A DNA stretch of 64,000 nucleotides from assembly GCA_023415475.1 (NCBI GenBank), contig JAEZKL010000130.1, positions 27,529 through 91,528 of the forward strand. Reading direction: 5' to 3'. The position numbers were made by a program, and so were the translations under genes. The notes beneath the pieces are model-generated. The model was not told the DNA's origin. It ran no database searches and saw only the letters and a program-made list of their open reading frames with translations. Source of the DNA: Bacillota bacterium. GTDB lineage: Bacteria > Bacillota > Clostridia > Lachnospirales > Lachnospiraceae. This document shows, piece by piece, positions 5,116 to 23,610 of the stretch. Every line of letters begins with the position of its first letter. Position 1 is the first letter of the stretch.

Positions 5116-5871
5116 TTACACACTGCCGTTACTCACTCGAAACCAATAAGTATAAAAGCTTTGGAAGCCCAGTGATTGATAAAGCAATATCGCCGGATGA
5201 TTTCCTTCCACTACCTGTAAATATGCTTTGCTCGCACCCTTCTTCATACCTTCCTTTAGGATACAGGTACATAATGACCGCGCCATCCCCTTTTTTCGAA
5301 AATCTTCCCTGACATGGATAGCATAAATACCGACATAGTCGCGATCAAGAATTCCAAGTCCGGTACCAACGATCACTCCCTGCCTCCAAATGGAGACACA
5401 TATAGTTTCCTTAGATATGGCATTGTACATCGTTGGAACGATTGCTCTATGTATGGCATTGGTTGTTCCCTTTAAGTCAAACAGGCCATCAATCCATTCT
5501 CTTCCGATTGTCTGACTGACAATCACTTCATCAGTCGGTGCATTAAGATTCGCCTCATCCAAATCTAAAATCATGACATCCGTGGTATGCTGTATTTCAT
5601 AATTACGGTTTTCCAGCATATAATCAAAATCCTTTGATACCAAAGGACTGATTTTGAATATCGCAGGCGTCCCCCATCGTTTATATGCAGCTTCACAATA
5701 TGGTATTTTCTCACGCCAGGAAAGAGTTGAAGTGCCAAACTGCTCAACACTGTTGGTTCTGTGTGTATAGAAGTGAGAAAAGCGCAGAATCCACCCGTCA
5801 TAAAGCTCCATTTGATGAGACGGCCAAGCATTCAGTGACAAATCTTCAATTGTTTTAATATTCATACTCAT
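5116..5871 (-). CDS. GNAT family N-acetyltransferase
   Basis: 251 aa. The sequence VREDFRKKGMARSLCTCILKEGMKKGASKAYLQVVEGNHPAILLYQSLGF matches the acetyl-CoA binding motif A region. Confidence 0.8.
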   Translation of the reverse strand: MSMNIKTIEDLSLNAWPSHQMELYDGWILRFSHFYTHRTNSVEQFGTSTLSWREKIPYCEAAYKRWGTPAIFKISPLVSKDFDYMLENRNYEIQHTTDVMILDLDEANLNAPTDEVIVSQTIGREWIDGLFDLKGTTNAIHRAIVPTMYNAISKETICVSIWRQGVIVGTGLGILDRDYVGIYAIHVREDFRKKGMARSLCTCILKEGMKKGASKAYLQVVEGNHPAILLYQSLGFQSFYTYWFRVSNGSV

Positions 5872-9339: not shown

Positions 9340-10812
9340 TTATTTCAGCGTTGATATCTCAATTCTATCATATTCGTATGCTTCCGGATGTTCTCCGTAG
9401 CGATCCAATTGTGAGGATTTACAATAGTAGACGTATTCCCCCTCTACATCAATACTACCGGATGAATAATAACCTCCCTCGAATTTGATGGTAGATTTGT
9501 CGCTAAGATCGATCAAGTAGATCTCAACCGGATCTTCATCACAGTCAAAGACTATCTTAAGATATCCCTCATCAATATCACCTCTCATAAAATAGGCAGA
9601 CCGGTTAATTTCTTTTATATCGAACGCATTCAGATACAGTCCGTTATTGTCTCCGTCAGTTCCGACAGAATATATATTCATGTCTTCCCCGTTATTGAAG
9701 TCGATACCGTAATACACATGAGAAGCAGTGGCTGCCAACAGGGTAAAGGTATTCGCCTCGAACCAATTGCATCCCAGTGCCTCTAATTCTTCTTTACTTA
9801 AGCTTTGTATCGTTGTAACTTCACGGTTCTTTACCTTATTTAGCTTCATTACTTTCGGTTCATCTGAGATAGCAAGAAAGAACAGTTCATTTTCGCTTGT
9901 CTTCATATCATATATATCCAGATCTTTATAAACTTCTTTCTTATTCTTCCCGTCAAAATCGATATAATATAGACGATCATTGGGATCATTCTCATTCAAG
10001 GTATTGTTAGAGCTTTTGCTGATATAATACAGTCCGTCCTGCACCATGACTGCTTCAAGGGTATCAATAGACTTTATCTTTGTGATAGTTTTCTTTACGC
10101 CCTCCTTATTAATCCGTATCAGCTCTCTGGCTTTTCTGTCTAAGGCAATTACGTCGTCATTATAAAATCCCAGTATTGTTGCTGTTCCCTTAAAAAGTCT
10201 GGTCTTATTCTTACCGTTCACACCAACCCGGTAAATGTCACCTTCCGTATGATAATAAATATTATCACCCTTGAGATAGAAATCACCGTTGTTAATATTG
10301 GCATCCTCTATTGTAGCAAGCTCTGTCACCTTCGAGGTATTCAGATTCTTTGCAGCGATCACCGTCTTGGTAAGCTTTCCCGTCTTATAAAAGAGATAAT
10401 TTCCATGAGTCAATGCCGTCGTACCGTGAACCGCCTCCTTAGTCGAAACAAAATCGGAATTCGACGCCGGTTCTGTTACCTTAGCCGGCTGCTCGGCCGG
10501 TGTTGGCTTTGCTGTAGACTCAGGATTCTTGGTGAGCGACGGCTCCGCTGTAGATTCCGGCTTCTTGGTTGGTGTTGGCTCTGTTGTGATCACAGACTCC
10601 TCTGCTGGTGTTGGCATTACCGTAGTCGAAACTGTTGATTGATCAAATGAATCTTCAATTTTATCATTTTCATTGTTACTATCTTGGGTTGATTTGTTAC
10701 ATGCTAAAGCTGCCATCGATACCATAAGCAGCAACCCTACCATCAAGGCCTTTTTCATCACCTTATATTTTTGTGATTTTCTTATTTCCTTTATATCATG
10801 GTTTGATATCAT
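9340..10812 (-). CDS. DUF5050-like membrane-anchored/secreted protein with a Pro/Thr/Glu-rich linker
   Basis: ORF 9340-10833. The start is probably ATG at 10812, preceded by GGAGG. A hydrophobic signal/anchor (LLLMVSMAALAC) is followed by a repetitive linker (PESTAEPSLTKNPESTAKPTPAE), then repeated YY/GD..YY motifs. Confidence 0.7.
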   Translation of the reverse strand: MISNHDIKEIRKSQKYKVMKKALMVGLLLMVSMAALACNKSTQDSNNENDKIEDSFDQSTVSTTVMPTPAEESVITTEPTPTKKPESTAEPSLTKNPESTAKPTPAEQPAKVTEPASNSDFVSTKEAVHGTTALTHGNYLFYKTGKLTKTVIAAKNLNTSKVTELATIEDANINNGDFYLKGDNIYYHTEGDIYRVGVNGKNKTRLFKGTATILGFYNDDVIALDRKARELIRINKEGVKKTITKIKSIDTLEAVMVQDGLYYISKSSNNTLNENDPNDRLYYIDFDGKNKKEVYKDLDIYDMKTSENELFFLAISDEPKVMKLNKVKNREVTTIQSLSKEELEALGCNWFEANTFTLLAATASHVYYGIDFNNGEDMNIYSVGTDGDNNGLYLNAFDIKEINRSAYFMRGDIDEGYLKIVFDCDEDPVEIYLIDLSDKSTIKFEGGYYSSGSIDVEGEYVYYCKSSQLDRYGEHPEAYEYDRIEISTLK

Positions 10813-10866
10813 AATTACCTCCATATATAGCATACTTATACATGATTCTACTATATTATAGACGAT

Positions 10867-10904: not shown

Positions 10905-13595
10905 TTAAGCCATCTGTCTTCTGGCAAGGCTTGCAAAAACACCGTCCCTTTCCATCAGCTCCTGATATGTACCCTGCTCTACGATTCTTCCCTGATCCAT
11001 TACTAGAATCTTATTACAGTTTCTGATTGTGCTCAACCGATGAGCAATAACAATACGAGTTGATTTCAAGCTGTCCAGACTCCTGCTGACAATCGCCTGA
11101 GTAGTATTGTCCAAAGCGCTGGTAGCTTCGTCGAAATAAATAATCTTAGGCTTATTCACAATGGCTCTGGCAATCATGATACGCTGCTTCTGACCGCCGG
11201 ATATCGTGGAGGCTCCCTCACTGATTGTGGTGTGCATACCCATGGGCATCTCTTTGATATCTTCTTCAATCCCTGCCATTGCTGCCGCTTCCCAGGCATC
11301 ATCCATCGAAAGGTATGGGTTGGTTCCAACAATATTATTAAAGATGGACCCAGTCATTAGTTGACCATTCTGAAGTACCACTCCTAACTGCCTGCGTACG
11401 GCTCTGACATCCACTTTTGATAAATCCTTTCCGTTATAATAGACGTTGCCTGTCTCCGGAGTCTCAAATCCAAGCAAAATACGGAGCAAAGTCGATTTAC
11501 CACAACCGGAGGTACCAACCAAAGCAACATAGTCTCCTTCCTCAATACGGAATGAAATATCCTGCAGGACAAGCGGTCCGTCACTCTGATAACGAAAGGA
11601 AACATGACTGACTTCTATCTCACCAGTCAAAGTACCGGGAGACAGCTTATTATCATCGTCCTCTGGCAGAGTCTCCAGAATGGGCTTCGCCCTTTTATAC
11701 AGCGGAATTACCAAATTGGCTCCGATGATCGAATTAGCAAGACCGACTAAAGAAAGCATAAAGGATACAAAGGCGGAATAGAAACCGATAAATCTGCTAG
11801 CCGTCATAGTCGCTTCACCACTAGCCTGTATATAGAATATAATCATACCGGCAAATACAGGAAAAGCCGTATAAAATACCGCAAGCACATTAGATATTCT
11901 CTCCCTGCAAAGTGTCAATCTGCATTGTTCCTTGAATTCATTTGCCCAACGGGAGAAGGCTCTGCTTTGCGCACCGGCAATCTTTAATTTTGTTACACTG
12001 CCAATCAGTTGAACCAACAATCCCGTTATTTTGTTTGATGCAGCAAGAACCTTATGCTCATATTTTACCTTGCGGGCTGCCAGCAACGCCATAACCAGAA
12101 TAGACAAAAGGACCAGTAGAGCGGCAACCATGGCAAGCCTTGAATTATAGTAGAACAATACCACGAAGGTGAACACTGAAAAGACACCAGATAATATGGA
12201 ATTTAATGTAGTTCCTGAAAGTATCATACGAATTTGGCTGATTCCCATTGCACGCATAGCCAAATCACCGGAAGAAAATTGCTTATAAAAGGGTACCGGA
12301 AGACTAAGCAGGCGATCCCATACAGCAGCCTGAAGGGCTCCATCCATCCTACCCTCCATACGCTGGGTTGCCAATGCACGCGTTAATTGAAAAAGCATGG
12401 TTGCCAGTGCACTTACACAGAGTATTAATCCAATCTGCAACAGCGCACCTATATCCCCCTCCGGTATAACATAATCAAAGACTAATCCGGTGGCCAATGG
12501 TACTGCAGTACTCAGTATCCCCCCAAATGCACCCATAATAGCAATTCTAAAAAGATCCTGTTTCCAACAGCTTTGCACTCCAAAACTCATTAGTTCCTTT
12601 AAGCCTATCTTCTTCTGCTCAAATGGACGAAATAACACAACGCCCTCTTCTCTAATCTGGGATGCCACCTTCTTGTTAACAGGGCATTGATTGCCATATG
12701 TCGGGTCATATAGGATATAGCAGCTTGGTGTTCTAGGCAATAGAGCAACTGGTCTGCCGTCCTCCTTCATATAACCCAGAATAGGTCCTCCGTCCTGTTT
12801 ATACCACCTGCCGTTTAAGGCTATCTCTCTTGTACGGAAATGAGATGCCCTTGCAATCGCATTTAGTGTAAGCTCTTGTTCTTCCTTTCGAGAAGGCAAT
12901 AATATCTTCATCTTAAGACTCTGTCCAATCAGATTACAGACATCGGCAAGTGCATTACCGCTATCCTCATGAAGAACGGTCTTTTTCTCCTTCTGATTCA
13001 GGACCGTAAGCTGCTTCAGTGAGTTAGATATTAATCGTTGGTCATTTTCCTGTCTCCTCTTCCGTTGTATCTCTTCGTTCTCTCTTTGCTTTTTGCATCG
13101 CTCTGCCTGAGAACACAGAATCCTGCTGTGAAGGCTGTTTCTTATTTCTTTCTTCTTTATAAACTCTTCAATAATGATTCCTTCCTCCGCAGCAGCTATC
13201 TCATTGTCTGCCGCACCTCGCACACCTTCCGATATATGCTTCAACCAGTTTTGTGTCATCTGTGAAAGCTTTACTTTAACCTTCTCATCTGATACCCCAG
13301 CCAACCATAAGGTTTCTAACCGGATTAACACACAGTCAAGGGAAGGTGCAGCCTGAATCACCATTCCATGTTCCGCCATTTCATGTTCCATACCAAAAAG
13401 CAACTCTCCCGGACCGGCCTCAAACCAAAAATATCTTACTCCTGTTTCATTATCAGACCTTAAGGCCGACAAGAAAAATAAAGCCGTGCCCTCCAGGACA
13501 AGCCAGACATACTCCGGGTTATGAAGCAAGTGTACCATGTCCTCTTTATTATCGATTATCGTGCCTTCCTTTTGAAATATATCAAAAATATCCAT
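10905..13595 (-). CDS. NHLP-type bacteriocin export ABC transporter permease/ATPase subunit with an extra N-terminal domain (cNMP-binding-like)
   Basis: 896 aa. The C-terminal NBD has GTSGCGKST, LSGGQKQR and IIYFDEATSALD. A six-helix TMD precedes it. About 330 N-terminal residues come before the TMD. It is paired with the C39 ABC gene and the HlyD gene. Confidence 0.85.
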   Translation of the reverse strand: MDIFDIFQKEGTIIDNKEDMVHLLHNPEYVWLVLEGTALFFLSALRSDNETGVRYFWFEAGPGELLFGMEHEMAEHGMVIQAAPSLDCVLIRLETLWLAGVSDEKVKVKLSQMTQNWLKHISEGVRGAADNEIAAAEEGIIIEEFIKKKEIRNSLHSRILCSQAERCKKQRENEEIQRKRRQENDQRLISNSLKQLTVLNQKEKKTVLHEDSGNALADVCNLIGQSLKMKILLPSRKEEQELTLNAIARASHFRTREIALNGRWYKQDGGPILGYMKEDGRPVALLPRTPSCYILYDPTYGNQCPVNKKVASQIREEGVVLFRPFEQKKIGLKELMSFGVQSCWKQDLFRIAIMGAFGGILSTAVPLATGLVFDYVIPEGDIGALLQIGLILCVSALATMLFQLTRALATQRMEGRMDGALQAAVWDRLLSLPVPFYKQFSSGDLAMRAMGISQIRMILSGTTLNSILSGVFSVFTFVVLFYYNSRLAMVAALLVLLSILVMALLAARKVKYEHKVLAASNKITGLLVQLIGSVTKLKIAGAQSRAFSRWANEFKEQCRLTLCRERISNVLAVFYTAFPVFAGMIIFYIQASGEATMTASRFIGFYSAFVSFMLSLVGLANSIIGANLVIPLYKRAKPILETLPEDDDNKLSPGTLTGEIEVSHVSFRYQSDGPLVLQDISFRIEEGDYVALVGTSGCGKSTLLRILLGFETPETGNVYYNGKDLSKVDVRAVRRQLGVVLQNGQLMTGSIFNNIVGTNPYLSMDDAWEAAAMAGIEEDIKEMPMGMHTTISEGASTISGGQKQRIMIARAIVNKPKIIYFDEATSALDNTTQAIVSRSLDSLKSTRIVIAHRLSTIRNCNKILVMDQGRIVEQGTYQELMERDGVFASLARRQMA

Positions 13596-13643
13596 ATCTC
13601 ACCCGCTCTTTTCTATGAAAGCACTGCACAAGCCGCAGTCTGC

Positions 13644-15818
13644 TTAACCTGTCTTAATCAGTTCGGTATAAACCCCGTTCTTTGCGTACAACTCATCATG
13701 TGTTCCACGTTCAACGATTTTTCCTTTATCAAGGAGAATAATCTCATCGCAATCTCGAATGGTACTGAGGCGATGCGCTATAATCAGACAGGTACACCCC
13801 CGCCGTCTGATATTCTCATCGACTGCTTTTTCCATCAACGGATCGAGCGCACTTGTCGCCTCATCAAGGATTAGTATCGATGGATTTCGCAGTAGCGCTC
13901 TGGCAATTTCAATACGCTGCCTCTGCCCACCACTAAAATTCTTACCTTCTTCTTCCATTCTTAGATCATAACCGCCGGAACGGGCAGTAATGTCCTCATG
14001 AATACAGGCATCCTTTGCTGCACGGATAAGCTCCTCCTCCCCCACAGTCTCATCCCATAAGGAAATATTATCGCGAATACTTTCCCGAAATATTCTGATA
14101 TCCTGGTCAACCATACACAGAGAATTGGTAATCACATACTGCTGCCACTCGGTTCGAGGCCGTCCATCCAGAAGTATTTCACCCGACCACGGCTGATAAA
14201 TACCAGCCAATAGCTTTGCTACGGTTGATTTACCGCTGCCGGAACCGCCTACCAGTGCCACTCGATTGCCCGGCTTAAGCTTTAGGCTGAAAATCTCGAT
14301 GAGTGGCGGATCCAGAGAACTATAACCAAAGGTAATGTCCTTAAGATCAACAAATCCCTCCAGTTTGTAGTCTTTCTCCTCCTGAACATCTGAGAGTTCT
14401 TCCGCCTTTGATATTTCGGTCTCTTTATTGTCAAAATCTATGGGATTTTTCATAACATCATCCAGTCGCTCGATTTCTCCTTCCACTTCCTGAAGCTCCG
14501 CTCCCAATCCGATGATCTCCTTCACCGGTGTCATAAAGCTTTCCATAAGACTTTGAAAGGCCACTAGCATACCAATTGTCATACTACCCCTGAGAATAAA
14601 ATATGCACCCATAATCAGTACGACCGCATTGTTAATACCGTTAAGGAATACCGGAAGCACCCCCAAATACTGAGAGGATACACCAAGCTTTTGCTCTGAA
14701 TTTAGAGCTTTTGCTTGATATCCTGACCATTTGGCAAAGAAATCAGATTCCGAGCCGGAGGCTTTTAATGTCTCAATAAGCTGTAAACCGTTCATGCCGG
14801 TAGCTATAAGCAGACCTCTGTCCTTTAACAACAAACTGTTACTATCCTTTCTATGATACGAGACCAGCTTAAGATAGAGAATATTGATAAGCGCGATAAC
14901 TGCTCCTACTGTAGCTAATACGATATTGTAGCGTAGCATCAGCAGAAAATAAAAAATAATCAAAACTAAATTTAACAATGCTGATGCAAGCTTGCCGGAC
15001 AGAAACTTTGCAACACGGTCATTACTCTGCATACGGGACGCAATATCCCCGACCACTCGTTGGTAGAAAAATACCGGTGGCAGCCTTAAGATATGCCATA
15101 AGAAGCGGCTTGAATTTGCGATTGCCAGTTTCATCTCCATCTTTAACAAAACATGTTTTTGCAGGAGGGTAAGTATCCCTCGAAATACGGCTGTTATTCC
15201 CATTCCCAACAGCAAGGGCATTACCCAGGAGGTTTTCCCGTCAAGAAGCACATCATCAACAAAGCTTCTTGTAAAGACAGGAAGTATCAATCCGGGAATG
15301 ACCATTGCCAATCCCACCAGCACCACATACAGTAAGGCTGCTTTCAAGCCGGACAGCCGATTCAGTAAGGTTGCTGCTATGCTGCTTTTCTTCCCTTCCT
15401 TCCGAAACTCTGTCGTAGGCTTAAATGACATTGTCACTCCCGTAAAGGATTGATTGAATTCCTCCTCTGTTACACTGCGTCGTCCTGAAGCAGGATCATT
15501 AATATAGAATTTGCTTTTCCCAATACCTTCAAGAACCATAAAATGACTGAAATTCCAATGGATGATTAGAGGTAATTGCATTTCCTTCAATTGACTTGGT
15601 TCCTTGCGATATCCCTTCGCCTCCAGATCGTAATGTCTTGCTGCTTTTAATATATTACTTGCTTTACTGCCATCGCGGGAAACACCGCATTCCACTCTTA
15701 CCTGCTCAAGTGGCACATATTTCCCGTAATATCTTAGAATCATGGTTAGTGAGGCTGCTCCGCATTCCGAGGCTTCCATCTGCAGAACAGTGGGAACCTT
15801 AACACGATACCTTCCCAT
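13644..15818 (-). CDS. NHLP-type bacteriocin export ABC transporter with an N-terminal C39 peptidase domain
   Basis: 724 aa. The C39 Cys motif is QMEASECGAASLTMILRYYG, with downstream HWNFSHFMVLEG and NDPASG (His/Asp). It also has a TMD and an NBD (GGSGSGKST, FSGGQRQR, ILILDEATSALD). Confidence 0.9.
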   Translation of the reverse strand: MGRYRVKVPTVLQMEASECGAASLTMILRYYGKYVPLEQVRVECGVSRDGSKASNILKAARHYDLEAKGYRKEPSQLKEMQLPLIIHWNFSHFMVLEGIGKSKFYINDPASGRRSVTEEEFNQSFTGVTMSFKPTTEFRKEGKKSSIAATLLNRLSGLKAALLYVVLVGLAMVIPGLILPVFTRSFVDDVLLDGKTSWVMPLLLGMGITAVFRGILTLLQKHVLLKMEMKLAIANSSRFLWHILRLPPVFFYQRVVGDIASRMQSNDRVAKFLSGKLASALLNLVLIIFYFLLMLRYNIVLATVGAVIALINILYLKLVSYHRKDSNSLLLKDRGLLIATGMNGLQLIETLKASGSESDFFAKWSGYQAKALNSEQKLGVSSQYLGVLPVFLNGINNAVVLIMGAYFILRGSMTIGMLVAFQSLMESFMTPVKEIIGLGAELQEVEGEIERLDDVMKNPIDFDNKETEISKAEELSDVQEEKDYKLEGFVDLKDITFGYSSLDPPLIEIFSLKLKPGNRVALVGGSGSGKSTVAKLLAGIYQPWSGEILLDGRPRTEWQQYVITNSLCMVDQDIRIFRESIRDNISLWDETVGEEELIRAAKDACIHEDITARSGGYDLRMEEEGKNFSGGQRQRIEIARALLRNPSILILDEATSALDPLMEKAVDENIRRRGCTCLIIAHRLSTIRDCDEIILLDKGKIVERGTHDELYAKNGVYTELIKTG

Positions 15819-15820
15819 CT

Positions 15821-16786
15821 CTACTGCACCCCTCTTTCCAGGCTGGGAATTACTTTCTCCAGTGGTCTTTCTCTACTGATTACAACTGCTCCCTGCACCA
15901 GCGTTCCACTGGAGATCGTAAAAGGTGGTCCGGAGGGAGAAGACCATTTAAAACCACTTACTGTATGAATATCTGTCGTTAAATCAATCTTAACCCGAAC
16001 CGGTATACCCATCTCACTAAGCTTTGCAACCAGTTCCTGACTGCCAAGTGTCTGAAGCATACTCTGCTCCGTTGCCGGGTATTCGTCAACAGATATCACT
16101 CTCCCTATCATAAACCCAAATTCTTCTTTATTTACAATACTAGGTATAATCTGTGCCTCCATACCGGATCTGATCCTTCCGCTCTGCTCAGCTGTTACAT
16201 ATAATACCGCCTCTAACCTGACCGTAGAATCATACTGCTCCAGAATCGCAAGAGCGTCTCCCTGTTTAATGACACTTCCTTTCTGAATATTAAGCTCCAT
16301 AATGCGTCCTGTTATCGGTGCAATAATTCTGGAGCGATAATCGAGCTCCTCCCTGAGCTGCTTTACCCTAGTCTGTGCCTCTGTAAATTCCTCTGCGCTT
16401 ACATTATTCGCTGCTTCCATCGAACTGAGTGTATCAATCAAACTATTAATTTGCTCCACCAGCTCCGGTTGTGCAACTCTTGCAATGACATCCCCTTTAT
16501 TCACCATGTCACCGTTTTCAAAACGAATATCCGTTACCTGCCCCATACTTTCGGAATTCAATGTATACACACCCGCATTATTTAATAGAATTCCGGTTCC
16601 CTCAATCTTCGTAATAATACTCCCCCTATAACCCCAGATCGCTGCACAGAATAAAATAAGACCGATAGCAACCAAAACTAGCCAGGCTTTGGGTGAGGTC
16701 AATCGAATTAACTGATCAAGCTGTTCCGGAGAGGAAAGCTTCTTTAATGATATTTCACGAAAGACAGTCCTTTTCATTCCAATCAC
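15821..16786 (-). CDS. HlyD-family secretion/adaptor protein of the NHLP bacteriocin system
   Basis: 321 aa. It has the KLSSPEQLDQLIRL signature, a single TM helix, and coiled-coil and barrel regions. It ends 2 nt before the C39 ABC gene start. Confidence 0.85.
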   Translation of the reverse strand: MIGMKRTVFREISLKKLSSPEQLDQLIRLTSPKAWLVLVAIGLILFCAAIWGYRGSIITKIEGTGILLNNAGVYTLNSESMGQVTDIRFENGDMVNKGDVIARVAQPELVEQINSLIDTLSSMEAANNVSAEEFTEAQTRVKQLREELDYRSRIIAPITGRIMELNIQKGSVIKQGDALAILEQYDSTVRLEAVLYVTAEQSGRIRSGMEAQIIPSIVNKEEFGFMIGRVISVDEYPATEQSMLQTLGSQELVAKLSEMGIPVRVKIDLTTDIHTVSGFKWSSPSGPPFTISSGTLVQGAVVISRERPLEKVIPSLERGVQ

Positions 16787-17949
16787 CTTTCCAGACGGCT
16801 AAATGATCCGTCTATAAGTTGCTTAATCACTATTAAATCTCCTGCTTCGTCGCCGGTTTCGGTAAATTCATGCACTCCGCATACACCCGTCCATTTCCCG
16901 AGCTCACGCAGTTTCTCCGCAACCTCCTCACGATTATTATTCTCAGTATTCTGTAAGGCGGCCGCCAAGATATGAACGGCATCATAGCCAAGTGCCGCAT
17001 AAGAATCGGGCTCCATCCCGTATTTATTAGCAAAATTGCGGGAAAAGCCTTTTGCCTGTTCGCTGGCAGCCGGGTCAAATACAGAACCAATCACGATGCT
17101 TGAATCCTGTTCTCCAATCAGGTTCGACAGCTGTGAGGAATCAAGTGCATTGCCTCCTATGAAAACTGTGTTAATCCCAATCTGTCCGGCATCATATATA
17201 AATTGCCCACCCTGGGATATTGCTGCCGCGACAAATATCCCATCATAGCCAAAGGCTCTCCACCTGTCCTTCAGACGGCTCAGCTCTTCTTCTCCGGCAT
17301 ACTCCGTAAAGCGATCAACTATGGTAATTCCATATCTTCGAAACTGATCCTCAACGGCATCCGCCAAACCCCTACCATAGGAATCATCGGAATAGTAAAT
17401 TACAATCCGCTTATGATTCATGTCAGCCAGAAATTCTGCTAATTTTTCTGCCAGAACAGCATCACTTGGAATGATCCGGAAAATATTTTGTTGATCTTTT
17501 TCGGTTAATTCCGGCGCAGTAGATGCAGGAGAAAGCATCACAAGATTTGCTTCCTTATAGATTGCAGATGCAGGCACTGAGATATAGGAGCTTTTATGTC
17601 CAATCACTGCCATTACTGTCTCACTATCCGACATACTTTGTGCGACAGCCAAGCCCTTAGTCGTCTCAGAAGCATCATCCGACTTCAGTAGTCGGAGTCT
17701 CTGCCCCCTTATCCCACCCTTCTCATTGATTTCTTCCACTGCCATGTCGATACCTTCTTCGAACAAACTAGTGTCGGATGCAAAGGGCCAAGCCACCCCC
17801 AGTGTAATTTCCTCCGTTTTGTTCGATATCTGCACACAGCTTGAAAGACTTAAGGTTATTATGATAACCGGAATGATTTTGATGACGAGCTGATCTATTT
17901 TTTTTATCATAACCTCATCCTTTCCTATGTTAAAACCATTATTTTGCAT
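16783..17949 (-). CDS. Periplasmic-binding-protein lipoprotein (LivK / Peripla_BP_6-like)
   Basis: 388-aa ORF. The likely start is ATG at 17910 (MIKKIDQ...). The lipobox is LSLSSC. The type-I PBP fold pattern includes GVAWPF...GIDMAVEEINEKGGIRGQRL. Its stop overlaps the HlyD start (ATGA at 16783-16786). Confidence 0.8.
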   Translation of the reverse strand: MQNNGFNIGKDEVMIKKIDQLVIKIIPVIIITLSLSSCVQISNKTEEITLGVAWPFASDTSLFEEGIDMAVEEINEKGGIRGQRLRLLKSDDASETTKGLAVAQSMSDSETVMAVIGHKSSYISVPASAIYKEANLVMLSPASTAPELTEKDQQNIFRIIPSDAVLAEKLAEFLADMNHKRIVIYYSDDSYGRGLADAVEDQFRRYGITIVDRFTEYAGEEELSRLKDRWRAFGYDGIFVAAAISQGGQFIYDAGQIGINTVFIGGNALDSSQLSNLIGEQDSSIVIGSVFDPAASEQAKGFSRNFANKYGMEPDSYAALGYDAVHILAAALQNTENNNREEVAEKLRELGKWTGVCGVHEFTETGDEAGDLIVIKQLIDGSFSRLER

Positions 17950-18000
17950 AGCTTCTCATTACTGAGCCGTTGTACGATAATACGCAGTGAGCTAAAAAGT

Positions 18001-18018
18001 ATTACATCATGATGTAAT
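18001..18018. promoter_or_regulatory. Perfect 18-bp palindrome in the divergent exporter/maturase intergenic region (candidate operator)
   Basis: The sequence is ATTACATCATGATGTAAT. It lies between the SBP-exporter operon start (17949/17910) and the radical SAM start (18172). Confidence 0.35.
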
Positions 18019-18171
18019 GAATTCATCAATCAAACGTATTAATTTACAATAGAAAGTACGTGTTGCGGAATTCTACAGACCCGAATGAAATATCATCCTG
18101 CTAAAAGCTTCATACGGAAGACAGACAGGTAATCGTTATCAAAAATATTATATAGAAAAGAGGATAAGAGA

Positions 18172-19557
18172 ATGGATACAAAAGAGTTACTGCCCTTCCA
18201 TCTGTTTCAATATAACGGTGAGCGTTATATGATCAATGTTGAAAAAATGCAGGCTGATACCATGGATCAACACTCCTATTCATATCTGGAGAAATTAGCA
18301 ATTGACGGCTACATGGCAGAATTACCACCGGATATGCAGTCAAAGCTAGAACACTATGGACTTCTCCCGACAGAAGGTACTAAAAGTAGACAGGTCCTCT
18401 CACCAAAGCATACACCTATCACTTATATGTCCCTTCTCGTTACCCAAGACTGTAATCTACGCTGCATCTATTGTTATGAGGATAAGACCAAGGCCAGAAT
18501 GGATGAGAAAACCGCCTTTCGGGCGGTGGACTGGTTAATCAGAAAATCGGAGAATATGCGGTCGATTCATATTGTTTTTTTTGGCGGTGAGCCTTTACTA
18601 AATTTTCCGTTAATGAAGGCAGTAGTTGAATATGCCAATGAAGCAGCGCACAAAGCCGGCAAACAGGCCACTTATTCCATTACAACCAATGGAACGCTAT
18701 TGGATGATGAGAAAAATCAGTTTTTTCTGAAGCACCAAATCAAAGTGATGATCAGCTTTGACGGACGAAAGGAGCTTCAGGATGTACAACGGCCATTTGC
18801 CTCGGGCTCAGGCTCCTATGACCTAATCTTGCCCAAAATTCATGATCTGCTGAAGCTTATGCCCCAGACTTCATGTCATGCAGTTGTCATGGGAAACACT
18901 TCTCCTGAGAAGGTAAAGGATGCATTGCAGGAGCTTGGTTTTCAACAGGTATCCGTAGCAATGAATTCCCAATCTCTGTTTACTCTCGACAGTCAGAAGG
19001 ATAAAGCATCGGACCGTGATATCCGGAGCATGATAAGCGCTCTGGAAGAGGAAGCGATAGTTTGGTACAATCGGATCATAGCTCGGGATACCGTTTCTAT
19101 AAATAAATTGACCGGAAGGAGCTATCTGTACCTGGCTCTGCGTTGCCTTTTAAATCATTCAATGAGAATATTTTTCTGCGGTGCCGGGAGGAGTATGGCC
19201 GCTGTTGCCCCCTCTGGGGATATCTATTTATGCCATCGCTTTGTCGGGCTGGATGATTACCGTATCGGTAGCATCGATGAGCATGATCTTAACCTAGAGA
19301 GCTTTAGTCAAAGCCCGGTTGAGGCAAATGCTATCTGTAACCGCTGTTTTGCCCGTTACTACTGCGGTGGTGGCTGTAAGCATGATCATGTCTCCTCTCG
19401 TGGCTACATCGATCAACCCGAAGAAGGAATGTGTCAGCTAAAACAGAGGGAACTTGAGCTGGCTGCCACAGTAGTCAGCAGGTTATCTCACGAGGACCGT
19501 AACTGGCTAGTCAAAGAGAAAATCTTTCCACCTAAGCCCTGCCCCCTGGATTTCTGA
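18172..19557 (+). CDS. Radical SAM/SPASM-domain peptide maturase (resembling the SCIFF maturase CteB and anSME)
   Basis: 461 aa. An N-terminal region of about 85 aa (FHLFQYNGERYMINVEKM...) resembles a peptide-recognition region. The CxxxCxxC motif lies in LVTQDCNLRCIYCY. The SPASM region contains CGAGRSMAAVAPSGDIYLCH and CNRCFARYYCGGGCKH. RBS: AAGAGGA. Confidence 0.9.
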   Translation: MDTKELLPFHLFQYNGERYMINVEKMQADTMDQHSYSYLEKLAIDGYMAELPPDMQSKLEHYGLLPTEGTKSRQVLSPKHTPITYMSLLVTQDCNLRCIYCYEDKTKARMDEKTAFRAVDWLIRKSENMRSIHIVFFGGEPLLNFPLMKAVVEYANEAAHKAGKQATYSITTNGTLLDDEKNQFFLKHQIKVMISFDGRKELQDVQRPFASGSGSYDLILPKIHDLLKLMPQTSCHAVVMGNTSPEKVKDALQELGFQQVSVAMNSQSLFTLDSQKDKASDRDIRSMISALEEEAIVWYNRIIARDTVSINKLTGRSYLYLALRCLLNHSMRIFFCGAGRSMAAVAPSGDIYLCHRFVGLDDYRIGSIDEHDLNLESFSQSPVEANAICNRCFARYYCGGGCKHDHVSSRGYIDQPEEGMCQLKQRELELAATVVSRLSHEDRNWLVKEKIFPPKPCPLDF

Positions 19558-19597
19558 TAGAAGGGAAGCTGGAACAGAGCATCAACATTAACATAAG

Positions 19598-19643
19598 AAA
19601 AGGCTGCCACTCAATAGATTATCTGCTAAGTGGCAGCCTTTTC
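19598..19643. terminator. Bidirectional rho-independent terminator between the maturase and precursor genes
   Basis: The sequence is AAAAGGCUGCCACU, a 17-nt loop, then AGUGGCAGCCUUUU, with A/U tracts on both sides. Confidence 0.7.
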
Positions 19644-19676
19644 TTACATATCACTGACTAAAGAGAATATATCTGA

Positions 19677-19916
19677 TTACAAGTCAATCAGGCATCTAAC
19701 CGGAATTTCAATGATGCAGCCACCGGCAACAGCATCCAATTCCTTTTCATTCAACTCTGATCCGACTTCCTCAATCTCTTCCTTTGTAAAGGTATAGCCT
19801 GCCTGTACGACAAAATCCCTGCGAGCTGCCTTGTCCTCGAAGCTGTTCACCTTTTTGGCAAATGCCTCGTCAGTCTTAATTCTTTCCAGATACGCTTTTG
19901 CTAAATCAATACTCAT
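19677..19916 (-). CDS. Nif11-like leader RiPP precursor peptide
   Basis: 79 aa. The Nif11-type N-terminal domain is MSIDLAKAYLERIKTDEAFAKKVNSF...AGYTFTKEEIEEV. The double-glycine site is NEKELDAVAGG, followed by the core CIIEIPVRCLIDL. RBS: AAGGAGG. Confidence 0.85.
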   Translation of the reverse strand: MSIDLAKAYLERIKTDEAFAKKVNSFEDKAARRDFVVQAGYTFTKEEIEEVGSELNEKELDAVAGGCIIEIPVRCLIDL

Positions 19917-20004
19917 GGGTGATCCTCCTTATAATAATTAATTTTGTGCATCTATGATACACTTAAATGTTTACGATGCTTAATACGTAACTGCTCCCTA
20001 TGTA

Positions 20005-20403
20005 TTACATATTAATTTCATTTTTTCGAAACATGCAATCCGAAGTACAGCTTTGAAACGGGCAATTCGAATATAATCCGCAAGAAGCCTTCCACCCTAT
20101 CTCCGGTGAACCGGCTGACGCCATGGATAGTTCCTCATCCAAAAGCTCATCCTCATCCTTTAAAAGGTAATCCGTCGATAATCCTTTGTCTTTCTTACCC
20201 TGTGACAATATGATACTGATAAGCTGGCTTCTTAAGTGGTCCCTGACCTTGCTCCTTATACTAAAATCAACTTCAATCAACTTCTTTGCTGTGATTAGTA
20301 GCTCTCCGATTTCATCATCACGGATGATCCCGGGCACTTGATCTCCTGCCAGGATTTTGTCAAGATACTCGAGATACCACTCTGCTTTGGTTTTCTCAGT
20401 CAT
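20005..20403 (-). CDS. Soluble anti-sigma-like protein with a Cys-rich C-terminal tail (possible second RiPP substrate)
   Basis: 132 aa. It overlaps the sigma gene by 8 nt. The N-terminus (YLEYLDKILAGDQVP...DDEIGELLITAKKLIEVDFS) resembles anti-sigma N-terminal regions found next to Firmicute ECF sigma genes. No TM helix is present. The C-terminus is LLDEELSMASAG followed by SPEIGWKASCGLYSNCPFQSCTSDCMFRKNEINM. Confidence 0.6.
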   Translation of the reverse strand: MTEKTKAEWYLEYLDKILAGDQVPGIIRDDEIGELLITAKKLIEVDFSIRSKVRDHLRSQLISIILSQGKKDKGLSTDYLLKDEDELLDEELSMASAGSPEIGWKASCGLYSNCPFQSCTSDCMFRKNEINM

Positions 20404-20971
20404 CCATATTTACCCCCTGATGCTCCATAAAATTCCGCATGCGCCGCATAGTCCTAAACAGGATAACTCCGATATTATTTTCGCTTAAGCCGGTAACTTT
20501 CGCTATTTCACGATTGGTCATGCCGCTCCAGAATTTTAAGGCGATGAGATCTCTTTCCCTATCGGTTAAAAACGTCAATGCCCTTTTCAACTGCTGCCTG
20601 ACCTCATTATATTCAGCTATGTCTACCGGGCTTAAACCGGGAGCCACAATATCTTCTATCGTCTCCAGAGGAGTATGGATATTGCGTTCCCGCCTGCGGT
20701 AATAATCGGTTACCGCATTACGGGCGATGCTGAAAACCCACGCAAAAAGCGGTGCTTTATCCGCAGAATAAAAACTGCGCTTCTCAAAAAGCTTATAAAA
20801 AATCATACTGGTTAAATCGTCCGCATCACTATAATTACTAACCCGATAGCAAACATAGTTGTAGATCCTCGGAAAATATTCATTATAAAATTCAGTAAAA
20901 TCAAAATCAGATTTATATGTAGTGTCAGTAAACGTCTGCTCTTGCAACTGTATCGGCATGATTATCCCCAC
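20396..20971 (-). CDS. ECF-type sigma-70 family RNA polymerase sigma factor
   Basis: 191 aa (GTG at 20971 or ATG at 20959). Region 2 reads YFPRIYNYVCYRV...DDLTSMIFYKLF. Region 4 reads LTDRERDLIALKFWSGMTNREIAKVTGLSENNIGVILFRTMRRMR. Confidence 0.85.
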   Translation of the reverse strand: MGIIMPIQLQEQTFTDTTYKSDFDFTEFYNEYFPRIYNYVCYRVSNYSDADDLTSMIFYKLFEKRSFYSADKAPLFAWVFSIARNAVTDYYRRRERNIHTPLETIEDIVAPGLSPVDIAEYNEVRQQLKRALTFLTDRERDLIALKFWSGMTNREIAKVTGLSENNIGVILFRTMRRMRNFMEHQGVNMDD

Positions 20972-21133
20972 TTCCCCCTGACAGCACCACCTGCACTTCC
21001 CCTTATCGGGAGCACTATGGCAGAGAAACTGCTGTCGATTCGGTATAGCACTTAATAAATTGACATTTTTCTTACTGTTATGATTAATTCTAGCATCATA
21101 ACAAATGTTTCAACAATGTACGCAGGGACAGTT

Positions 21134-21179
21134 TAAAAAAAATAAAAGTACAGTCTTTTTAATAAAAGACTGTACTTTT
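21134..21179 (-). terminator. Rho-independent terminator after the response regulator gene
   Basis: The minus strand reads AAAAGUACAGUCUUUU, loop, AAAAGACUGUACUUUU, followed by AUUUUUUUU. Confidence 0.7.
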
Positions 21180-21230
21180 AGACAGTTTACATTAGCCTAT
21201 TGAATACTCTTAGCGGTAGCTCAATAAGCA

Positions 21231-21929
21231 CTATTCATTACGTATTAACCCTTTCTGGGCAGCATACAAAATCGCTTGTGATTTATTCTCCAGATGCAAC
21301 ATATCCAGTAATCTGCTTATGTGGTACTTAATCGTGCGCTCGCTAAGCCCCAATCTTTCACCGACTTCTTTATAGGTTGCACCTTGTGCAATCAGCTCCA
21401 ATACCTCAATCTGCCGCTCGGTTAGTTCAGACTTCTCTGTTTTACACTTGTTCTGTGTTAAGCAATCGTTTATTCCTTTGCCTCGTTTGAATTCCATTAC
21501 CAATTTGGTGGCCAAACCCTGAGACAACGGCATTTCACCCTTCTCAACGGACTCTAGATATTCCACCAGCTTTTTCGCATCGGTATCCTTAAGCAGATAA
21601 CCGGAAGCACCATATTTGATTGCATTGAATAAATCCTCATCGTCATCCGAGGTGGTAAGCATAACCAGTTTAATCTCCGGAAGCTCTTCATGAATCCGTT
21701 TTACCGCTTCCAGACCGTTACAGCCCGGCATTTTGATATCCATTAGTATAATATCCGGCTTTAACTTATGAGCCATTACGGCTGCTTCATTACCATTCCT
21801 AGCCCTTCCTACTACTTCAACACCGAAGGTTTCTAATAAATACTGAAGACCCTCTAAAAACAAAGAGTGATCATCCACCAGCATTACTTTCATATTCATT
21901 CGTATCATCTTCCCCCTTCCTGGGCACAT
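21231..21929 (-). CDS. LuxR/NarL-family response regulator
   Basis: The receiver domain has MKVMLVDDHS...ILMDIKMPGCNG. The C-terminal HTH has LTERQIEVLELIAQGATYKEVGERLGLSERTIKYHISRL. The true start is probably ATG near 21893-21908, because the ORF overlaps the kinase 3' end. Confidence 0.9.
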   Translation of the reverse strand: MCPGRGKMIRMNMKVMLVDDHSLFLEGLQYLLETFGVEVVGRARNGNEAAVMAHKLKPDIILMDIKMPGCNGLEAVKRIHEELPEIKLVMLTTSDDDEDLFNAIKYGASGYLLKDTDAKKLVEYLESVEKGEMPLSQGLATKLVMEFKRGKGINDCLTQNKCKTEKSELTERQIEVLELIAQGATYKEVGERLGLSERTIKYHISRLLDMLHLENKSQAILYAAQKGLIRNE

Positions 21930-23610
21930 ATAACGTAACCTTGCTCCCCTTATCCGGTACGGATTCGATTGTAATATATCCGCCGATTAATGCTGCCCTC
22001 TCCTTCATAATATCCAAGCCGAATTTGTTCTTTACCGAGTCATCTTTATGAACTGCATGGAAACCCTTGCCGTCGTCAGCAATCGAGACGGTCATCTGCT
22101 TATCCTCTACTTGAAATGAGATGATAACCTCATGTGCCTGTGCATGTTTTCTGATGTTATTCATAGCCTCACGTATTATATTTTGAATGTTTACCTTAAC
22201 GGACATATTAAATTCTTTCTCTATTGAATCCTCCAAAATATCCAGCTTTACCTTCAAGCCAGTCTGCTGCTCAAAATTCATAATATCATTTTTTAAGGAG
22301 GTGATAAAATCTCTCTCCGTGATCACCGATGTTCTGACACTGGAGATATACTCTCTTATCTCTGCATGCATATTCTGTGTGACCTTAATTAATCGATCCA
22401 GTTTATCATACACAAGATCGATTCCCTCATTTACCAGCTCCTGACGGATCGCCTGGGCTTGCAAATTAATAAATCCCAGCACCTGTCCCAGATTGTCATG
22501 CAAATCTCTGCTTATTCTTTCTCTTTCATCAATGACTGCCAATTGCCATTGCTGCTTTAGAAACTCCTGTTGCGCCTGCTTTTTCTCTGTTATATCATGA
22601 AGTACTGCCAGACGACCTATGTAATAATCCTTTTTATCATATAGAGGAATAAGTAATATTTCAAAAACTCTTGTCTCTTTCTCCCCTGTTATGGAAAAAT
22701 CGGTATGAGAGGCTCTTCCATCTTTTATGATACGGACTAACTCCGGTATTGCCATACATACCTCATCAATTGACAATAGATAATATTTTTGTACCGAGAT
22801 ACCTATAATTCTTTTGAATGCCGGATTCATATCCAGTATCCTGTCCCGTATATCCAATACCATAACTCCTGCATCCATGGCTTCAATTATGGCTGTCCGT
22901 GCCAAAGGAACCAGTTCAAACATCCTGTTGTGGAAGATAGACCACAGCATCATAACACCTGCCGGACCGAAAAACAAAGGCGTGATATCATACTGTAATG
23001 GACTGATTCCGATAATGTAGATAAGGTTCGGAATTATGATAAAGCTTGTTCCAATGAGTAGATAGCTTGCTTGCTTTTTATAAACTGATCTCTTCGCTAA
23101 TGCTGTACGTAATAATACAGCAACAGCCCACAGGTTCAGACAGTGGGAATATGCTGCATGAATATAGAACCAACCTCCGTACTTTTTTGCTATCACATAA
23201 AACGCCCCGCTATACGCCAAATGGACATCATACCGAATCAGACCGTGCAACTGATTAGTCCAGACCAAAATAAGCGAAATGCAGGGCAAAACAAAGAGCC
23301 ATTTTAATTTATTCTTATGTTCTTTATAGCTGTGACCGGTCGCTTCCATGCAAAGGATAAGTAGGGAAACCGGGGAGAAGCAATATGCAATATACTGCAT
23401 ATTAGCCCAAAACAGCTTAACCGATAAATCTACAGCCGCCATTTCCAGAGCATTGGGAATAGACCAGAAGGTGACAATAAACATGCTTAGAGCAAAAAAC
23501 TCTACGCCTTGTGCTTTTCTACGTTTTATCTGCGCAAAGATACCCAACGATAAAGTGAGTAAGCCTGAAATCGACAAAGGCCATATGATCGGAATATATT
23601 GATAATTCAT
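21871..23610 (-). CDS. Sensor histidine kinase (N-terminal 7TM region, PAS, HisKA_3, HATPase)
   Basis: 579 aa. About seven N-terminal TM helices are followed by a PAS-like region, an H-box (RERISRDLHDNLGQ) and G-boxes (DDGKGF, GLDIMKERAALIGG). Confidence 0.85.
   Translation of the reverse strand: MNYQYIPIIWPLSISGLLTLSLGIFAQIKRRKAQGVEFFALSMFIVTFWSIPNALEMAAVDLSVKLFWANMQYIAYCFSPVSLLILCMEATGHSYKEHKNKLKWLFVLPCISLILVWTNQLHGLIRYDVHLAYSGAFYVIAKKYGGWFYIHAAYSHCLNLWAVAVLLRTALAKRSVYKKQASYLLIGTSFIIIPNLIYIIGISPLQYDITPLFFGPAGVMMLWSIFHNRMFELVPLARTAIIEAMDAGVMVLDIRDRILDMNPAFKRIIGISVQKYYLLSIDEVCMAIPELVRIIKDGRASHTDFSITGEKETRVFEILLIPLYDKKDYYIGRLAVLHDITEKKQAQQEFLKQQWQLAVIDERERISRDLHDNLGQVLGFINLQAQAIRQELVNEGIDLVYDKLDRLIKVTQNMHAEIREYISSVRTSVITERDFITSLKNDIMNFEQQTGLKVKLDILEDSIEKEFNMSVKVNIQNIIREAMNNIRKHAQAHEVIISFQVEDKQMTVSIADDGKGFHAVHKDDSVKNKFGLDIMKERAALIGGYITIESVPDKGSKVTLYVPRKGEDDTNEYESNAGG

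Follow-up and report, generated by a model that had tools for sequence, protein, structure and literature searches.

A conserved radical SAM peptide cassette in Bacillota with a predicted ECF sigma regulon and an anti-sigma-like protein carrying a leader-like box

Among the peptides that are made on ribosomes and modified after translation (RiPPs), one kind combines Nif11/NHLP precursor peptides with a radical S-adenosylmethionine (SAM) enzyme as their only maturase. The enzyme family, TIGR04064, goes back to an in silico definition by Haft in 2011 (PMC3023750), its Desulfitobacterium hafniense version appears in lists of 2010 and 2014 (PMC2887384, PMC4289311), and NCBI annotation already names TIGR04064-type proteins. 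No experimental work on any TIGR04064 member, and no characterised product of one, was found in the literature. Here we describe a locus of this kind in a 64,000-nucleotide stretch of DNA from a Bacillota bacterium of the Lachnospiraceae (assembly GCA_023415475.1, contig JAEZKL010000130.1, positions 27,529 to 91,528), hereafter called the window. The region 10905-23610 of the window is probably one self-contained cassette that makes and exports a small modified peptide. An initial annotation, drawn from the sequence alone, had called the locus uncharacterised; this holds as far as experiments found in the literature are concerned and does not hold in silico. Because TIGR04064 was predicted in 2011 and no experimental member was found, the RiPP part is of a kind known from genome mining only. 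What is new here is a conserved predicted extracytoplasmic function (ECF) sigma factor regulon, an anti-sigma-like protein (p132) that bears an exporter tag, a solute-binding protein (SBP) embedded among the export genes, and a predicted sensor domain on the second ATP-binding cassette (ABC) transporter, ABC2.

The locus shares with TIGR04064 clusters such as DSY0169/Dhaf_0108 of D. hafniense (PMC3023750; PMC4289311) the enzyme family, a Nif11 precursor with a core of about 13-14 amino acids, the NHLP export trio and the reliance on a single maturase, a radical SAM enzyme. Those clusters are likewise known from genome mining, and the literature found on them does not mention an SBP, an ECF sigma factor, p132 or a common promoter; the window enzyme is only 46-50% identical to the enzymes of Desulfitobacterium and Desulfosporosinus. 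The ranthipeptide systems freyrasin PapA/PapB, thermocellin CteA/CteB (SCIFF) and QhpD/QhpC also rely on SPASM radical SAM enzymes, which make thioethers from Cys to side-chain carbons, and in the substrates of PapB and QhpD the Cys is followed by Asp or Glu, as in the window core. In contrast to these systems, the window has a Nif11 leader with a GG site and a peptidase-containing ABC transporter (PCAT), and its core is far shorter, with two Cys instead of six. The NHLP/Nif11 trio and PCAT1 (PMC2887384; PDB 4RY2) have in common with the window a C39-ABC transporter, a second ABC transporter, an HlyD adaptor and a double-glycine leader cut at export; unlike them, the window operon begins with an SBP gene, encodes a predicted CRP-like domain on ABC2 and has an ECF-type promoter. 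For the regulatory part, microbisporicin offers the same logic, in that a pathway-specific pair of ECF sigma factor (MibX) and anti-sigma factor (MibW) together with the LuxR-family regulator MibR controls the RiPP operons (PMC4973701). MibW is of a different family from p132, which is small, has no hydrophobic segment and bears an exporter recognition box.

The cassette, its promoters and its upstream regulators

The features of the cassette, in window positions, are listed below.

10905-13595, minus strand: ABC2, NHLP-type permease/ATPase with no peptidase domain (TIGR03797)
13644-15818, minus strand: ABC1 (C39-ABC), PCAT with intact C39 domain (TIGR03796, Peptidase_C39)
15821-16786, minus strand: HlyD-type adaptor of the NHLP export system, likelier true start the ATG at 16777 (TIGR03794)
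16783-17949, minus strand: SBP, LivJ-like Peripla_BP_6 solute-binding lipoprotein, first gene of the exporter operon (PF13458)
17977-18006, minus strand: ECF-type promoter of the SBP-HlyD-ABC1-ABC2 operon, TGTAATAC-N14-CGTATTAT
18013-18042, plus strand: ECF-type promoter of the radical SAM gene, TGTAATGA-N14-CGTATTAA
18172-19557, plus strand: radical SAM/SPASM peptide maturase (TIGR04064)
19594-19646, both strands: bidirectional intrinsic terminator of the radical SAM and precursor genes (fold dG, flanking A/T runs)
19677-19916, minus strand: precursor peptide, 79 amino acids (TIGR03798, PF07862)
19980-20009, minus strand: ECF-type promoter of the precursor gene, TGTAATAC-N14-CGTATTAA, overlapping the p132 stop codon
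20005-20403, minus strand: p132, a 132-amino-acid open reading frame (ORF), soluble anti-sigma-like protein, no family match
20396-20971, minus strand: ECF sigma factor with sigma-2 and sigma-4 domains only (TIGR02937, Sigma70_r2, Sigma70_r4_2)
21113-21180, minus strand: imperfect palindrome (21113-21132) and conserved hairpin (21143-21180), candidate operator for the LuxR-type regulator
21231-21929, minus strand: NarL/LuxR-type response regulator (Response_reg and GerE)
21871-23610, minus strand: sensor histidine kinase, 7TM, PAS, HisKA_3 and HATPase domains (PF16927, E = 2e-54; PAS, HisKA_3, HATPase_c)

Gene order and strands agreed with the initial annotation for every ORF, as did the spacings (an 8-nt overlap of the sigma and p132 genes, an 88-nt gap between the p132 and precursor genes, and exporter gaps of 2 nt and 48 nt), and its family assignments and its view of the locus as a unit were also upheld: the curated cut-offs of TIGR03794, TIGR03796, TIGR03797 and TIGR03798 were passed and the locus is conserved as a unit. 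The SBP/HlyD overlap, described there as ATGA, is GTGA instead. An ATG nine bases downstream of the annotated HlyD start has a better ribosome-binding site and is the likelier start, and for the sigma gene a gene caller prefers an ATG start four codons into the ORF, which yields 187 amino acids. The precursor and radical SAM genes lie 119 nt apart and, as had been proposed, share a bidirectional terminator, a hairpin with dG -31.8 kcal/mol and z = -9.1, with an A-run upstream and a T-run downstream. The adjacent 7TM-PAS kinase and LuxR-type regulator were also correctly recognised, as Pfam found HisKA_7TM plus PAS and Response_reg plus GerE, respectively.

For comparison across species, one genome per species was scanned, which gave 77 loci whose ORFs were called and searched with ten window proteins; 42 of the 77, in which the enzyme reached 370 bits or more against that of the window, are termed related loci, and labels such as L004 denote single loci. 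The whole cassette was found in the same order and orientation in 22 of the 42 related species loci, with ABC2-ABC1-HlyD-SBP on one side of the radical SAM gene and divergent from it, and the precursor, p132 and ECF genes on the other side and converging on it. The hosts are Desulfosporosinus, Desulfitobacterium, Anaerobacterium, Formimonas, Syntrophomonadaceae, Carboxydocellales and other Bacillota, and the nearest species-level relatives of the window, a metagenome scaffold, are Bacillota including a Herbinix metagenome-assembled genome. An ECF gene was never present without an SBP gene among the 42 loci. Because they recur in 22 other species, the SBP, the ECF module and the Cys-rich p132 are a conserved syndrome rather than incidental neighbours. 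The regulator gene adjoins the cassette in 10 of the 22, accompanied by the kinase gene in nine and alone in L004, on a short contig.

Alignment of the regions upstream of the precursor genes revealed the bipartite motif TGTAATAC-N14-CGTATTAA. There are just three matches to the pattern GTAAT-N16-19-CGTAT in the 64 kb of the window, where 0.47 would be expected by chance. All three are in the locus and correctly oriented, one 5' of the SBP-exporter operon and one 5' of the precursor gene, both on the minus strand, and one 5' of the radical SAM gene on the plus strand. The motif occupies the same three places in all 22 cassettes, its label before the SBP gene of L027 being hidden by an over-long ORF call. 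The -35 boxes of the two divergent promoters, that of the SBP operon and that of the radical SAM gene, lie back to back and make up the perfect 18-bp palindrome ATTACATCATGATGTAAT at 18001-18018; most related loci likewise have the two boxes back to back, about 10 nt apart. As a rule, ECF promoters have 'AAC' as part of the -35 box and 'CGT' as part of the -10 box, and we take the motif to resemble the promoters of Bacillus sigma-X and sigma-W. The initial annotation had suggested that the precursor gene may be co-transcribed with the ECF pair. Its position downstream of the pair stands, whereas sole dependence on read-through does not, given the conserved ECF-type promoter of its own at 19980-20009. 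All three units (precursor; radical SAM gene; SBP-HlyD-ABC1-ABC2) would each start from one conserved ECF-type promoter.

The sigma factor scored 99.3 against TIGR02937 (cut-off 42.9), with Sigma70_r2 and Sigma70_r4_2 both found; its best specific model, the BldN-type TIGR02952, gave 138 against a cut-off of 206, so that it falls in no named subfamily, and nothing relevant to its group was found in the main text of the ECF reclassification paper. The motif is absent 5' of the sigma gene in cassette loci and lies directly upstream of the sigma gene in the distant loci L078 and L087. Autoregulation is the usual mark of an ECF sigma factor's own promoter (PMC7826278). Since the motif is conserved together with the adjacent sigma gene and precedes that gene itself in L078 and L087, we infer that it belongs to this sigma factor, which most likely reads the three promoters. 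Taken together, we consider it likely that the three operons of the RiPP cassette are the regulon of the adjacent ECF sigma factor, with p132 as its anti-sigma factor and the kinase/regulator pair upstream. The locus would then hold a complete and compact ECF regulon, of three promoters, one sigma factor and one partner protein, that is directly readable in the sequence.

Upstream of the ECF gene in the window, the imperfect palindrome ACTGTCC-N4-GTACATTGT overlaps the -35 box of a sigma-70-like promoter, TTGAAA-N15-TGCTAGAAT. 5' of the sigma gene, the window and most loci that bear the kinase and regulator genes have a palindrome ACTGTAC-N-GTACATTGT and a sequence-conserved hairpin. The hairpin, which follows the response-regulator gene, is a terminator with the arms AAAAGTACAGTC / GACTGTACTTTT, conserved in sequence across distant genera, and the palindrome looks like a candidate operator of the LuxR-type regulator. 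The palindrome is present too in L031, L032, L034 and L036, where no kinase/regulator pair was found; loci lacking the pair mostly have other repeats at this place, for example TTTGGTGGCAGTTTTGGTGG. Because hairpin, palindrome and sigma-70-like promoter precede the sigma gene, a cascade running from the kinase and regulator to the sigma factor and on to the three operons is suggested, in which the sigma gene, behind its sigma-70-like promoter, would probably be controlled by the 7TM-PAS kinase and the LuxR-type regulator.

p132 and its leader-like box

p132 begins with three N-terminal helices and a variable linker, behind which come a conserved box DEL[DT]EE.L..VAAG and a four-Cys tail, usually CPxCG...CPxC; the tail cysteines of the window protein are C108, C115, C120 and C124, and the tail is absent in some members (L009, L027). 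The overlap with the sigma gene, 8 nt in the window, is at least 8 nt in related loci, and the p132-like gene overlaps or abuts the sigma gene in L078, L082, L083, L087 and L089 as well. A word-indexed search returned 75 relatives and an exhaustive hidden Markov model (HMM) search of 1.84 billion representative proteins only 77, the named ones all being 'hypothetical'. p132 is recognisable in 20 of the 22 cassettes. A protein with an N-terminal sigma-binding part and a C-terminal input part fits these data, because the tail is lost in some members and L002 keeps the N-terminal 80 residues.

Several observations weigh against an anti-sigma role. No Pfam or NCBIfam family matched p132, even at E up to 10, and no likeness to a known anti-sigma domain was detectable. 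The AlphaFold2 (AF2) model of p132 is poor (predicted local distance difference test score, pLDDT, 57; 3+1 helices), and it is for this reason that Foldseek gave nothing. p132 is truncated to the N-terminal 80 residues in L002 (11655-11897) and absent in L004 (Herbinix; 5731-5868) and L039, and the latter two loci retain the sigma gene and all three promoters despite its loss.

Comparison of p132 with the cassette precursors by hhalign gave a sole match, between residues 84-98 of p132 (EDELLDEELSMASAG) and residues 52-66 of the precursor (GSELNEKELDAVAGG), with P = 7e-4 and a probability of 26%. These residues are the conserved box of p132 and the end of the Nif11 leader. In a scan of 10,215 ORFs with a leader-box HMM, p132 proteins were the best-represented class directly behind true GG-leader peptides. 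Residue frequencies at the positions counted back from the end of the box are as follows.

Position -12: p132 family L 83%, Nif11 leaders L 94%
Position -7: p132 family L 83%, Nif11 leaders L 100%
Position -4: p132 family V 82%, Nif11 leaders V 100%
Position -3: p132 family A 76%, Nif11 leaders A 100%
Position -2: p132 family A 92%, Nif11 leaders G 100%
Position -1: p132 family G 87%, Nif11 leaders G 83%

Positions -4, -7 and -12 and the GG pair are known determinants for binding by the PCAT peptidase domain (PMC7018657). Distant members carry true GG boxes at the homologous position, of the canonical form ELSxxELxxVAGG (for example ELSDDELDWVAGG and ELSEEELGYASGG), and one of these reached E = 1e-6 against an HMM built only from Nif11 leader boxes. 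Co-variation of the p132 box with the leader box, such as Thr at -11 in both, was considered but not accepted as evidence, since the loci in question belong to a single clade.

The box could nevertheless have nothing to do with export. The main alternative, to which we give nearly an even chance, is that p132 is an ordinary cytoplasmic anti-sigma factor whose box is an acidic amphipathic fourth helix in contact with the sigma factor and whose four-Cys tail works as a zinc or redox sensor, with no regulatory role left for the exporter. The box match, at that modest hhalign probability, is only 15 residues (columns) long and the individual HMM E-values are not significant; the box ends in AG instead of GG in the window, in the cassette clade and in 48 of 56 aligned family members, which may prevent cleavage; and the model places a helix at 89-96 behind the three N-terminal helices, compatible with an anti-sigma domain. 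A variant with ECF, p132-like and DUF7005 genes, moreover, has no exporter within about 10 kb. These points speak for the alternative. Against the alternative, the conserved positions match the PCAT determinants -12, -7, -4 and -1 one for one (PMC7018657), distant homologues have perfect ELSDxELDxVAGG boxes, among them the one found by the leader-only HMM, no GG-box ORF other than the p132-like gene was found next to the PCAT pair of L083, and no Nif11 gene was called in L087.

A further explanation, which we regard as very unlikely, makes p132 a second RiPP precursor with a leader of about 98 amino acids and a Cys-rich tail that would undergo modification by the radical SAM enzyme and export; its adjacency to the sigma gene would reflect co-regulation only. 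The succession of a GG-type box and a Cys-rich tail agrees with this, and NHLP-type leaders are also long and structured (PMC12537861). However, in every locus with a readable upstream gene, except possibly L088, the p132 gene overlaps or adjoins that of the ECF sigma factor; the tail is a zinc-ribbon-like CPxCG...CPxC motif in most members and is missing from L009 and L027; the N-terminal domain has no likeness to Nif11 or NHLP leaders outside the box; and members of the family are also present where a radical SAM gene is lacking.

The exporter operon, distant modules and a proposed export-coupled control

The export genes form one operon and bear out the NHLP/Nif11 trio recognised initially, with scores of 947 for TIGR03797 (cut-off 709), 1090 for TIGR03796 (853) and 333 for TIGR03794 (156). 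ABC1 matches PCAT1 (4RY2) over its full length (residues 5-721, E = 2e-95), and its C39 domain is intact as claimed, PF03412 being matched in full (E = 1.5e-38) and C19, H92 and D108, together with Q13, being read from the sequence. From family membership, the C39 domain of ABC1 would cut the precursor after Gly-Gly66 and ABC1/ABC2/HlyD would export the resulting 13-mer.

The TIGR03797 match of ABC2 comprises residues 213-895, preceded by an N-terminal extension of about 210 amino acids. Residues 1-142 (13170-13595) were modelled by AF2 as a beta-barrel with trailing helices (pLDDT 68), for which the top Foldseek matches were the effector domains of CRP, CprK, Vfr, CLP, CooA and FNR, with E about 1e-4 and template modelling (TM) scores of 0.55-0.62. 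The model rests on three sequences, as the homologue search of the domain gave two proteins; Pfam had no match to it, and a profile run against PDB sequences gave only designed helical repeats. A conserved G-[DE]-L-L-F-G motif recalls the phosphate-binding cassette of cyclic nucleotide monophosphate domains. Because the model matches CRP/FNR-type effector domains, ABC2 probably carries a cytoplasmic CRP-like ligand-sensing domain.

The SBP has a clear Pfam match (PF13458, E = 3e-48) and the lipobox LSSC. Its embedding in the exporter operon, remarked upon initially as unusual, proved general, as the gene adjoins the exporter in all 22 related cassettes and in the distant L078, L083 and L087. 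No importer permease gene was found near it in the ORF map or by Pfam and NCBIfam. For both of these reasons, its interpretation as an unrelated nutrient-uptake gene was rejected. The SBP outside the cell and the CRP-like domain of ABC2 inside it would be candidate signal inputs.

Parts of the cassette recur at a distance from RiPP genes. In L087, examined over 10 kb on each side, the SBP, HlyD, C39-ABC, ABC2, ECF and p132-like genes are followed by a fatty-acid/polyketide-like cluster of SDR, ketosynthase, FabA/ApeI-like, acyl carrier protein (ACP), PPTase, ketosynthase III (KSIII) and AMP-ligase genes; within these limits there is no radical SAM or Nif11 gene and no other GG-bearing gene visible beside the PCAT pair. 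The L087 sigma factor and SBP are 44% and 34% identical, respectively, to those of the window. L078 has an arrangement like that of L087 with a NapH-like ferredoxin gene inserted, and its ABC2 is a true TIGR03797 member (985 bits). In L083, the ECF and p132-like genes are followed by two outer-membrane factor genes and then SBP, HlyD, C39-ABC and ABC2; apart from the p132-like protein, a box-HMM scan found no GG-box ORF beside this PCAT pair. The available stretches around the L078 and L083 modules contain no radical SAM or Nif11 gene; L087, covered over 10 kb to either side, is the clearest such case. The module stands directly upstream of a co-directional fatty-acid or aryl-polyene-like cluster in both L087 (10464-20414) and L078 (8591-14012), and these clusters also hold lactamase_B and ACP genes and a ketosynthase of 750 amino acids.

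Adjacency to exporter or sigma factor is not universal, because of the DUF7005 variant and L088. In the former, represented by L080 (821-1990) and L082 (10403-11557), the p132-like protein has the tail CxxCxC...CPxCGH and the DUF7005 protein is about 385 amino acids long with no NCBIfam match; an ECF-type motif lies just 3' of the DUF7005 gene in L082. On the short contig of L088 (1207-1607), a p132-like gene behind an ECF-type promoter follows a gene for an AraC-type regulator and not a sigma gene. On another short contig, L079 (511-1165), a p132-like gene behind an ECF-type promoter is followed by a Nif11-leader peptide with no Cys in its core (FLIVDTVVATVLVATYVVGKGW).

FlgM, the anti-sigma factor of sigma-28, leaves the cell through an export machine that sigma-28 itself helps to build, and this export frees sigma-28. 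We tentatively propose, as the mechanism we favour, that the cassette sigma factor is under a comparable export-coupled control through contact of the C39 domain with the p132 box, with the SBP and the CRP-like domain as further inputs; this reading of the sequences falls short of an even chance. The translationally coupled p132 would probably hold sigma activity in check, and the C39 domain of the exporter would engage the box of p132. Relatives with a true GG box would be cleaved and their tails exported; where the box ends in AG, as in the cassette clade, binding may be all that occurs, so that p132 would be a slow or pseudo-substrate competing with the precursor. Release of the sigma factor would then track the state of the exporter. 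The proposed logic, in which export capacity sets transcription, is that of FlgM/sigma-28, whereas FlgM leaves through flagellar type III secretion and p132 would meet a PCAT ABC exporter; the two systems are not homologous. No anti-sigma factor with a double-glycine motif or with PCAT cleavage was found in the literature.

More generally, though with the same reserve, SBP, HlyD, C39-ABC, CRP-domain ABC, ECF sigma factor and box-bearing anti-sigma factor could constitute an undescribed portable signalling device, in which the peptidase recognises the box of the anti-sigma factor and either cleaves and exports its tail or sequesters the protein. The device would be tied to a radical SAM RiPP in the window and to a fatty-acid/polyketide-like cluster in L078 and L087, an equally provisional view, and in the latter two no GG-bearing substrate other than the anti-sigma factor is visible, and this protein may also serve as the pro-form of a secreted signal peptide. 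Were the exporter to act on p132, this would be a new coupling of secretion to transcription, a new class of PCAT substrate and a reusable switch for different biosynthetic clusters.

The maturase, its precursor and the predicted product

The radical SAM enzyme scored 551.5 bits over residues 7-461 against TIGR04064, the 'nif11-like peptide radical SAM maturase' model, and is a member of this family because the score exceeds the curated cut-off of 518.7. The enzyme does not group with anSME, which gave only 110 bits; TIGR04064 came first, followed by PapB, SCIFF and QhpD, and the likeness to CteB seen at the outset was upheld, CteB being the closest solved structure (5WGG, E = 1e-49). Pfam found the Radical_SAM domain, and the SPASM domain fell slightly short (19.4 against a cut-off of 21.5). 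The motifs C94-x3-C98-x2-C101 and C389-x2-C392-x5-C398-x3-C402 are invariant in 26 homologues and have the form described for TIGR04064, CX3CX2C with a C-terminal C-x2-C-x5-C-x3-C (PMC3023750). LanM and cyclodehydratase genes were not found in 10905-23610 by ORF map or by NCBIfam and Pfam scans, in line with the initial view of the radical SAM enzyme as the sole tailoring enzyme.

The precursor has the Nif11-type leader and GG site ascribed to it (TIGR03798, 68.5 against a cut-off of 32.3; PF07862, E = 3e-11). The leader of 66 amino acids ends in ...ELDAVAGG66, directly before a Cys, and leaves a core of the predicted 13 amino acids, CIIEIPVRCLIDL. In the precursors of relatives the leader is well conserved and the core is short (7-20 amino acids) and hypervariable. 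Tandem precursors with near-identical leaders and differing cores, for example CGHACLEGIGDVQVW and CGHACLAIPGADLKFT, occur in L028 (11398-11958) and L033 (4394-4947).

The window core contains C-x2-E and C-x2-D, and paired C-x2/3-[DE] motifs such as CIIE...CLID, CFID...CGYD and CLVD...CGLGE are found in the window clade and several others. PapB joins Cys to an Asp or Glu lying C-terminal to it (PMC12373016), and the paired motifs fit the rule of PapB and QhpD because both link Cys to an Asp or Glu on its C-terminal side. By analogy with PapB, CteB and QhpD, the 79-residue precursor would be bound by the radical SAM/SPASM enzyme, which would link Cys1 of the core with a side-chain carbon of Glu4 and Cys9 with one of Asp12. 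That the core CIIEIPVRCLIDL carries two small thioether rings, Cys1-Glu4 and Cys9-Asp12, is about an even call. Two findings weigh against it. The next-best models for the enzyme were all below their own cut-offs (PapB 257 against 340, SCIFF 229 against 425, QhpD 215 against 453), and by sequence the enzyme is in a sister family of the PapB, SCIFF and QhpD ranthipeptide enzymes and a member of none. In other clades, the core has only one Cys and neither Asp nor Glu (SSWCLWNG, GCLLMFG), so that the acceptor residue is not universal and the chemistry is not generalisable across the family. A different cross-link, either a thioether to an alpha-carbon as in sactipeptides or a link to the C-terminal residue, would accommodate both findings, and PapB itself also links Cys to C-terminal residues in peptides that end in D- or beta-amino acids (PMC12373016). 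We nonetheless consider such a link unlikely, as the best secondary matches, PapB, SCIFF/CteB and QhpD, all make non-alpha thioethers (PMC11002830) and the paired C-x2/3-[DE] motifs are present in the window core and its close relatives. The tiny core with two Cys makes the predicted Cys1-Glu4/Cys9-Asp12 product an easy first target in a family for which no characterised product was found.

As to function, the predicted small thioether product may be a signal rather than a toxin, as the initial annotation had suggested. An antagonistic bacteriocin, its production merely timed by the regulators, is a possibility that we hold only tentatively. The export trio was defined as a bacteriocin exporter (PMC2887384), hypervariable cores among close relatives and the presence of two precursors in some loci are typical of toxin arms races, and the antibiotic RiPP microbisporicin is under the control of an ECF sigma/anti-sigma pair (PMC4973701). 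On the other side, no immunity gene was found in 10905-23610 by ORF map, Pfam or NCBIfam, as had been noted at first, the core is a very short hydrophobic peptide, and an extracellular binding protein is conserved with the exporter, whereas the bacteriocin 'grammar' of Haft has such systems without a periplasmic substrate-binding protein (PMC3023750). An effect of SCIFF ranthipeptides on quorum-sensing and sporulation genes in clostridia, attributed to Chen et al. 2020 in a later article (PMC8102284), also speaks for a signal.

The genes flanking the locus appear unrelated to it and encode an S41-like peptidase, two unassigned proteins, chemotaxis receptors, a KSIII, a dehydrogenase and an aminotransferase. 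Just 3' of ABC2 lie two minus-strand ORFs of 386 and 497 amino acids (7721-8881 and 9340-10833) with no Pfam match; the product of the second (9340-10833) has a hydrophobic N-terminal segment and a linker rich in Pro, Thr and Glu. A stand-alone KSIII (FabH-like) gene at 25483-26487 on the minus strand, about 2 kb past the kinase gene and after a chemotaxis-receptor gene, is probably unrelated; KSIII genes are likewise present in the clusters attached to the distant modules.

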